A stretch of 25,432 bases of DNA from positions 1-25,432 of the forward strand of contig JBHLPL010000016.1 in NCBI GenBank assembly GCA_048939465.1, written 5' to 3'. This DNA is from Promethearchaeota archaeon. Lineage in GTDB: Archaea > Asgardarchaeota > Odinarchaeia > Odinarchaeales > JBHLKK01. This document shows positions 8,279 through 18,493 of the stretch, one piece after another; positions within the stretch are counted from its first letter, which is position 1, and every line of letters begins with the position of its first letter. Below the pieces are notes generated by a model, which did not search any database, was not told the origin of the DNA, and worked only from the letters and a program-made list of their open reading frames with translations. The position numbers and the translations under genes are program-made.

Positions 8279-8827
8279 ATGTTTGCGTTACTGATTATAG
8301 ATATGTTAAACGACTTCATTAGAGAGAACTCTGTTCTGGAGGTTCCGAAGGGAAGAGAAATCATTCCAAATATCCAGAAGCTCATATCAAAGGCCGAGGA
8401 AAGAGGGATTCCTGTAATATATGTTTGTGATGCTCATGAAAGAGATGATAATGAATTCTTGGAATTCAAACCGCACGCTATAAAGGGGACCGCGGGGGCG
8501 GAAGTCGTGGAGGAACTCCACCCTAGAAAGGGAGATATTATTATCGAGAAGACGAAATTCGACGGATTCTACAACACAAAACTGGACATCACGCTAAGGG
8601 ACCTTATGGCGGATACGCTAATTATTGCGGGGGTTCTTACTGATATTTGCATATTGTATACTGCTGCTAGCGCAAGTATGAGAGAATACAGGGTGTATGT
8701 TGTTAGTGATGGAACAGCAACCCACGAAGAAGAAACACACAAAGGTTTTTTGGATTATATGGCGAATTCTGCAAGGGTAGCTAGCATCGTTGACACTCAG
8801 GGAGCGTTGCTATTAATGGAAGAATAA
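8279..8827 (+). CDS. pncA: Isochorismatase-family cysteine hydrolase, probably nicotinamidase
   Basis: Catalytic Asp (IIDMLNDF), Lys (EKTKFDGF), Cys (GVLTDIC); metal ligands DAH...PH; divergent from pncB. Confidence 0.8.
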   Translation: MFALLIIDMLNDFIRENSVLEVPKGREIIPNIQKLISKAEERGIPVIYVCDAHERDDNEFLEFKPHAIKGTAGAEVVEELHPRKGDIIIEKTKFDGFYNTKLDITLRDLMADTLIIAGVLTDICILYTAASASMREYRVYVVSDGTATHEEETHKGFLDYMANSARVASIVDTQGALLLMEE

Positions 8828-8854: not shown

Positions 8855-8922
8855 TGGAGGTCTAGATCGTCGCGAGGTCATCATTTTTTATCAGACTGGG
8901 GTCGGCGTCTATCATTCCTCCA
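8855..8922 (-). ncRNA. Box C/D-like 2'-O-methylation guide sRNA with variant terminal boxes
   Basis: Minus strand reads TGGAGG-AAT-GA-TAGA-cgccgaccccagt-CTGA-taaaaa-ATGATGA-cctcgcgacga-TCTA-GA-CCTCCA. It has a 6-bp terminal stem, a 3-nt bulge plus tandem GA kink-turn closed by a 4-bp stem, perfect D' and C' boxes, and 13- and 11/12-nt guides. Confidence 0.8.
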
Positions 8923-9047
8923 GCAGTAAATAGGGGTATTGGTTCTAAAAAACTTATGGAATCCTAACGAACGAAAGAAGAGTCCATAAAGCTTAAATAA
9001 GCAATTCAGCGACAGAAAATCTAGAATTACAGAATATCTTAATCGGT

Positions 9048-9191
9048 GGGCCCGTAGCTCAGTCAGGTAGAGCACCGGGCTTTTAAACCCTGGTGCTTCC
9101 TTGTGAAGAAACCCGGTGGGTCGTGCTGCAAATCGCACGCGAGCCGCTGCAATCTGCAGAATCGTGGGTTCGATTCCCGCCGGGCCCGCCA
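9048..9191 (+). tRNA. tRNA-Lys(UUU) with a 37/38 intron (9086-9110, 25 nt) and a composite 46/47 insertion (9120-9161, 42 nt); CCA encoded
   Basis: Removing both segments gives a 77-nt cloverleaf: GGGCCCG/CGGGCCC acceptor, GCTC/GAGC D stem, CCGGG/CCCGG anticodon stem with CTTTTAA loop, GTGGG-TTCGATT-CCCGC T arm. The 37/38 BHB helix is CTTT:GAAG. Confidence 0.93.
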
Positions 9192-12430: not shown

Positions 12431-12559
12431 GGGCCCGTAGCTCAGGTAGGTAGAGCGTCGGTCCATTTAGTCGATGGGACGAAGCTCTTAACCCGATGGA
12501 CTGTTAAGCGCATGGTTTAACAGGTCGAATCAGGGGTTCAATTCCCCTCGGGCCCGCCA
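12431..12559 (+). tRNA. tRNA-Lys(CUU) with introns at 30/31 (12462-12483, 22 nt) and 46/47 (12500-12529, 30 nt); CCA encoded
   Basis: Spliced product is a 77-nt cloverleaf (TCGGG/CCCGA stem, CTCTTAA loop, AGGGG-TTCAATT-CCCCT). The 30/31 intron has a full BHB (GAG:CTC, CGTC:GACG, CCAT:ATGG). The 46/47 intron has helix CGAT:GTCG plus a CTGTTAA/TTAACAG stem. Confidence 0.95.
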
Positions 12560-18302: not shown

Positions 18303-18455
18303 TGGTGGGTCGGGTGGGATTTTCCCCATCCAAGGCTCCCTTAAACGGTTTTGAACCCACGAGTTTGTGACAAAGTCATTTTGGCATCTGTTCTCGCGCG
18401 ATCTGGCCTGTTGGTCCCCAGGCGCGGATCCTAAACCAGGCTAGACCACCGACCC
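18303..18455 (-). tRNA. tRNA-Pro(GGG) with three introns: 37/38 (18415-18401, 15 nt), 46/47 (18391-18363, 29 nt; 3' edge uncertain by 2 nt), 59/60 (18349-18320, 30 nt); CCA encoded
   Basis: Spliced cloverleaf is 79 nt: GGGTCGG/CCGACCC, GTCT/GGAT, CGCGC/GCGCG with CTGGGGC loop, GTGGG-TTCAAAT-CCCAC, ACCA. BHB helices CTGG:CCAG (37/38) and TTCA:GGAA plus a 10-bp intron stem (59/60). Confidence 0.93.
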
Positions 18456-18493
18456 GCCTTGACTCTCGCTCTTAAATAATTAGCGGCGAATTA

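Follow-up and report, generated by a model that had tools for sequence, protein, structure and literature searches.

The sRNA locus and its host genome

Between the 3' end of an open reading frame (8279-8827, plus strand) and an intron-containing tRNA gene (9048-9188, plus strand), the window, that is, the whole stretch of 25,432 nt that was analysed, carries on its minus strand, at 8921-8856, a 66-nt element whose layout is that of an archaeal dual-guide box C/D sRNA. Read as the reverse complement of the window, the putative RNA is 5'-GGAGG-A-AUGAUAG-A-CGCCGACCCCAGU-CUGA-UAAAAA-AUGAUGA-CCUCGCGACGAU-CUAGA-CCUCC-3', the elements following one another as terminal stem, C box, D' guide, D' box, short loop, C' box, D guide, D box and terminal stem. 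Both guides named in the original prediction were found where it had placed them, the D' guide at 8907-8895 and the D guide with its variant D box at 8877-8861. Rfam returns no known family at this locus, just weak generic C/D matches with E > 1.

The internal boxes are standard: the D' box CUGA (8891-8894, minus strand, as are all elements of the sRNA) and the C' box AUGAUGA (8878-8884) are separated by 6 nt, as in a k-loop. The terminal boxes, namely the C box AUGAUAG (8909-8915) and the D box CUAGA (8861-8865, UAGA plus C8865), are non-standard, yet both keep the GA dinucleotide beside the terminal stem, which is made of GGAGG (8917-8921) paired with CCUCC (8856-8860) and is directly abutted by the GA of the D box. 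The deviating bases of the two boxes are mutually complementary, with U-A-G of the C box pairable with C-U-A of the D box (U-A, A-U and G-C), and the kink-turn stem would be one pair longer in this sRNA. The D guide CCUCGCGACGAU (8866-8877) provides a spacer of 12 nt, or 13 nt if counted from UAGA, in line with the usual length of ∼12 nt, and its family-conserved position 5 is A8870. The D' guide ACGCCGACCCCAGU (8895-8908) has position 5 upstream of the D' box at C8899, and its spacer of 13-14 nt is one or two above the usual. A conserved A/T box, AAGUUUUUUAGA (8945-8956, minus strand), lies ∼23 nt upstream of the 5' stem and is a candidate archaeal TATA element; in the form AAGUUUUU(U)AG it is kept both in the genus of the host and in G003-G006, four genomes of the same order, while the flanks have otherwise diverged. 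The 3' half of the stem is followed by a T-rich run. We infer that the A/T box acts as a promoter and the T-rich run as a terminator.

The tRNA gene at 9048-9188 (141 nt) and another one at 12431-12556 (plus strand, 126 nt) are stretched by several insertions, and both are detected by Rfam and missed by ARAGORN. Long inserts also mark a tRNA-Pro(GGG)-like gene (∼18340-18457, minus strand), which is missed by ARAGORN as well as by Rfam at its gathering threshold.

The host is an uncultured Asgard archaeon, and its genome is a MAG of 152 contigs, 91% complete. It encodes the proteins of a C/D RNP, with nop5 and fibrillarin side by side on one contig (C116) and L7Ae on another (C69). Sequence searches detected no 23S or 16S rRNA genes either in this genome or in its two congeners. 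Because the host 23S is not assembled, every pairing described below uses relatives as stand-ins: targets were tested via the rRNA of homologue-bearing genomes, found across the phylum by an LSU search with a DNA query, and the rRNA of G003 stood in for the host's when the window's own guides were considered. The host's own 23S sequence thus enters the model as presumed from its relatives.

Distribution of the family

Copies of the sRNA in the two congeners are identical to that of the window, and those of G003-G006 are 77-80% identical to it, with another terminal stem (GUAGAGG/CCUCUAC) and yet another C/D variant. These Odinarchaeum-type copies (L024, L025, L023 and L022) combine the C box GAUGAAAU with UGGA as D box. 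The third position of their kink-turn is an A.G pair, and the order thereby contains a second departure from the standard form.

A covariance model, R1, was built from an alignment of ten sequences, A1, in which the C' box AUGAUGA and the GACGAU of the D guide are invariant and the D' box is CUGA in nine (CAGA in G022). R1 finds homologues in 73 of the 151 genomes sampled across the Asgard phylum. Its score on the window's copy (65.4 bits, E = 5e-18) follows by construction, this copy being among the ten; support independent of the A1 set comes from matches such as those in G049, G032 and G075. An exact-pattern scan of species genomes places the family also in Heimdallarchaeota, Thermoproteales, Thermoproteota and Nanoarchaeota records. 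The window's sRNA itself carries both family signatures in one RNA, a D' guide that ends in ...CCCAG(U/A) ahead of the D' box, with the P-loop as predicted target, and a D guide that ends in ...GAC(G/A)A ahead of the D box, with helix 89 as predicted target. To judge from these comparisons of sequence, it belongs to an ancient and widespread archaeal family, of which it is a diverged form specific to its order.

Two Nanoarchaeota homologues (L135 and L132) keep the P-loop guide, and their D guide CAGAGAGACGAU fits not helix 89 but GUCGUCUCUC, at E. coli ∼2505-2514. This is a third GUCG site, at which the 23S of these genomes (L137 and L138) differs from the GUCGGCUCUU of other archaea. As the Nanoarchaeota guide fits this other site, the second guide is not fixed across all archaea.

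Predicted pairing of the D' guide with the P-loop

In a typical member of the family the D' guide reads (G)CGCCGUCCCAG(U/A) and stands directly before the D' box. The P-loop sequence GCUGGGGCGGCAC is almost invariant among the relatives, in which the P-loop reads GGCUGGGGCGGCAC, and typical D' guides form an uninterrupted duplex of 9-11 bp with it. By the N+5 rule the target is then E. coli G2251, the second G of the GGGG run, which faces the fifth position upstream of the D' box. Scans of the whole 23S rank the P-loop first for the D' guides of G022, G012 and G003, and second for those of G017 and G028. The original assignment of the D' guide to G2251 is supported at the level of the family, by the contiguous pairing of its typical homologues. 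A modification at this place is known from an archaeon: Gm was reported within G[Gm]GGC of Thermococcus kodakarensis 23S rRNA, at the equivalent of G2251 and adjoining the equivalent of E. coli G2252 (PMC12124282). Furthermore, sRNA-guided methylation of the G2251 equivalent was predicted in three archaea by Dennis et al. (PMC4644070), and in yeast the Gm2251 counterpart, Gm2619, is guided by snR67 (PMC11121408).

The guide in the window's order departs from this pattern by one extra base: it contains GACCCC in the window's genus and AACCCC in G003-G006, versus GUCCC in typical members. On G003 rRNA, RNAduplex pairs the window's D' guide with the P-loop through 7 bp, a bulged A and 4 bp (-22.6 kcal/mol), which reproduces the bulged-A pairing proposed earlier. 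Within the 23S and 16S of G003 the P-loop is the best site of this guide, by 1.2 kcal/mol. As 5 of 100 shuffled D' guides equal its best energy, this guide alone stands weakly above chance, and for the D' guide of G003 itself the P-loop is marginally best (-18.3 vs -17.9 and -17.8). Since the window's guides alone are weakly above chance, the weight of the target case comes from the homologues. The bulge, together with a D' spacer of 13-14 nt and not 12, may lower or abolish the activity of the D' guide.

The D guide and helices 89 and 93

The 5' strand of helix 89, AGUCGUCGCGGGC, is flanked by the conserved AACAG and AAGAG; it corresponds to E. coli 2455-2467 and equals the E. coli strand in length. 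In the closest relatives it pairs over 11 bp with the window's D guide. The D guide of G003, GCCUGCGACGAU, has 12 of its 12 bases paired with helix 89 (-24.2 kcal/mol), the next site on the rRNA reaching -16.6 and helix 93 being outside the top six. Among 28 genomes in which the sRNA and this part of the 23S are both present, helix 89 is a better site than helix 93 in 24, with mean duplex energies of -18.0 vs -12.5 kcal/mol; the 23S helix 89 stretch of one further genome (L075, G063) is N-masked and was left out. In the five genomes for which the whole 23S was scanned, helix 89 was the top D-guide site in each.

The guides also follow the changes of their target. For helix 89 the energy is -17.5 when a guide is paired with the rRNA of its own genome versus -14.8 under permutation, and 0 of 2000 permutations reached the own-genome value; for helix 93 the figures are -12.46 vs -12.47, reached by 1031 of 2000. 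The genomes in this test are related and not independent, and the counts give no clean probability, though the contrast between the two helices is plain. Where helix 89 changes, the guide changes: G040 shows the double compensatory pair of GUUGUCACGGG with CCCGUGACAA, and in family f4 GUCGUGGG occurs with CCUACGAC or CUCACGAC.

For the window's own D guide, G003 rRNA gives -19.4 on helix 89 and -16.7 on helix 93. Because 34 of 100 shuffled D guides reach the same helix 89 energy, the case for this particular guide rests on homology. Where the D box is a standard CUGA, position 5 of the guide falls on the A of the invariant GAC, and this A faces U2460. The D box of the window is one base longer, and this extra base shifts the count by one: homology makes U8866 position 1 and U2460 the target, while a strict count from UAGA leads to G2459. 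The same ambiguity applies to helix 93, where it yields U2593 or G2592, just as the original prediction had it. Most likely, the D guide follows the 5' strand of helix 89 (E. coli 2456-2467), with a predicted site at U2460 or G2459.

Discussion

Our reading of the locus is as follows. A 66-nt dual-guide sRNA would be transcribed from the minus strand, probably under a promoter of its own, and would assemble with L7Ae, Nop5 and fibrillarin, all encoded by the host. Its D' guide is predicted to pair with the 23S P-loop (helix 80) and to direct 2'-O-methylation of the G2251 equivalent, whereas the D guide would pair with the 5' strand of helix 89 (2456-2467) and direct methylation of the U2460 equivalent, or of G2459 if counted from UAGA. 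Both predicted sites belong to the catalytic core of 23S rRNA. The extra guide base would bulge out, and the C/D kink-turn appears rewritten but still pairable. Of this model, we observed the anatomy of the sRNA, its conservation, how its guides pair in relatives and how the D guides co-vary with helix 89; to the model as a whole we give a probability of about 0.6.

Other targets have been considered for each of the guides. The D guide had originally been assigned to helix 93, and its action there (on G2592 or U2593), alone or besides helix 89, is a tentative possibility with odds well short of even. The stretch GACCGUCG(U/C)GAGA of helix 93 does form 9 bp with the window's D guide, plus 2 bp past one mismatch, and the match is present in all the relatives; G104 even favours helix 93, and in G008, G037, G090 and G095 the two helices are about equal. 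Moreover, the Pyrobaculum sR17 guide CCUCGCGACGGA is perfect on helix 93, and its published predicted target is U2867, which corresponds to E. coli U2593. Nevertheless, an A x C mismatch interrupts this pairing in every relative; it is conserved, occupies guide position 2 or 3, two or three bases away from the D box, and stands beside the target nucleotide. Helix 93 does not co-vary with the guides as helix 89 does, and on the proxy rRNA it is only third-ranked for the window's D guide. The assignment to helix 93 is, in our view, largely displaced: helix 89 should replace it or, at most, have helix 93 added to it, with U2593 as a possible weaker second site.

For the D' guide, it might be argued that it has decayed or been retargeted in this order, the extra base leaving 7 bp at the P-loop, and that it either lacks activity there or serves a different CUGGGG, for instance the one at 23S ∼1106 (ACUGGGGUUAAGG). 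The extra base is indeed common to the window's genus and G003-G006, and the D' guide of G003 forms 9 Watson-Crick bp at 1106 with an energy nearly tied with that at the P-loop. The 1106 site, however, is in a variable helix, and a match of this kind is at chance level given the ∼six CUGGGG sites in rRNA. A search of the G003-G006 genomes for a perfect and conserved alternative D' target found none, the counts being those of the reversed-pattern control, and the window's guide still prefers the P-loop, with its 5' part CGCC paired. We therefore consider loss or retargeting unlikely. Far less probable still is the tRNA-Pro(GGG) of the window, which had been offered as an alternative D' target through its nt 1-9. 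The tRNA exists, and so does the 9-bp match (8 Watson-Crick pairs and 1 GU) of CGCCGACCC in the 5' part of the guide with GGGUCGGUG of the minus-strand gene near 18457. As a target it was rejected: the pairing uses guide positions 5-13 and leaves positions 1-4 unpaired, which puts the N+5 nucleotide, G1, at the very edge of the duplex. Similar runs of 8-10 bp are many in the window, and elsewhere in the family the P-loop is the indicated target.

The two guides have close parallels among published archaeal sRNAs. Sac-sR110 of Sulfolobus acidocaldarius (Dennis et al. 2015, PMC4644070) is a homologue with the same dual-guide layout: its D' guide CGCCGCUCCAGU complements the P-loop, and its D guide CAACGCGACGAG has the CGCGACGA core in common with that of the window. 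Unlike the window's sRNA, it has standard C and D boxes, 12-nt spacers and no bulge. Its targets were given as not predicted for both guides (PMC4644070), and our comparison supplies predicted ones for this published orphan. The P-loop guide is borne also by Iho-sR410 and Tte-sR107 (PMC4644070, supplement). The D guides of Pyrobaculum Pca-sR17 (CCUCGCGACGGA) and Thermoproteus Tte-sR117 (CCUCGCGACGAG) are almost identical to the window's CCUCGCGACGAU, whereas their D' guides, of the GGGUAUCAAAU type, are unrelated to the window's D' guide. The 3' ends differ as well: the GGA of Pca-sR17 is perfect on helix 93 (U2867), while the GAU of the window fits helix 89. In that work sRNA-guided methylation of G2251, U2734 and U2867 was predicted in archaea (PMC4644070). 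Its numbering is offset by 274 from that of E. coli, as derived from C2880 = E. coli C2606 and gap-free E. coli rows, which makes U2734 the equivalent of 2460 and U2867 that of 2593; U2460 and U2593 had therefore been predicted before for such guides.

Outside the archaea, yeast snR67 (Gm2619) and bacterial RlmB (Gm2251) modify the same nucleotide, the P-loop G that contacts the CCA end of tRNA (PMC11121408). The former is a eukaryotic snoRNA with a second target, Um2724, and the latter is a stand-alone protein enzyme. Homology between the guides of the archaeal sRNA and of snR67 is indistinguishable from convergence on the same rRNA sequence. With this in mind, one may picture a single sRNA with P-loop and helix 89 guides that is older than the divergence of Asgard, TACK and DPANN archaea and is the archaeal forerunner of the eukaryotic RNA-guided Gm2251 (snR67 type), with the Odinarchaeia-related lineage keeping a working copy in spite of its bulged guide and a kink-turn longer by one base pair. 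We regard this scenario as speculative and rather improbable; if it were true, the ruler of the C/D RNP would tolerate both deviations.

In sum of its parts the sRNA and its guides are real, and they make a somewhat odd addition to a known, ancient family, not a new kind of system. The analysis assigns probable targets to an unannotated Asgard guide RNA, in a phylum for whose C/D sRNAs we found no papers in the literature library searched. Predicted from the guides, P-loop Gm2251 guidance would be widespread in the Asgard phylum, as in Crenarchaeota and eukaryotes. With its bulged guide and rewritten kink-turn, the sRNA could serve as a natural test of the spacing rules that C/D RNPs obey.

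A separate observation concerns the rRNA of the relatives. Right after GUGAGA in helix 93, the 23S departs from the consensus in G017 (L010), G043 (L118), G046 (L119), G079 (L121) and G126 (L125), and these departures look like introns inserted at the same spot in several relatives.
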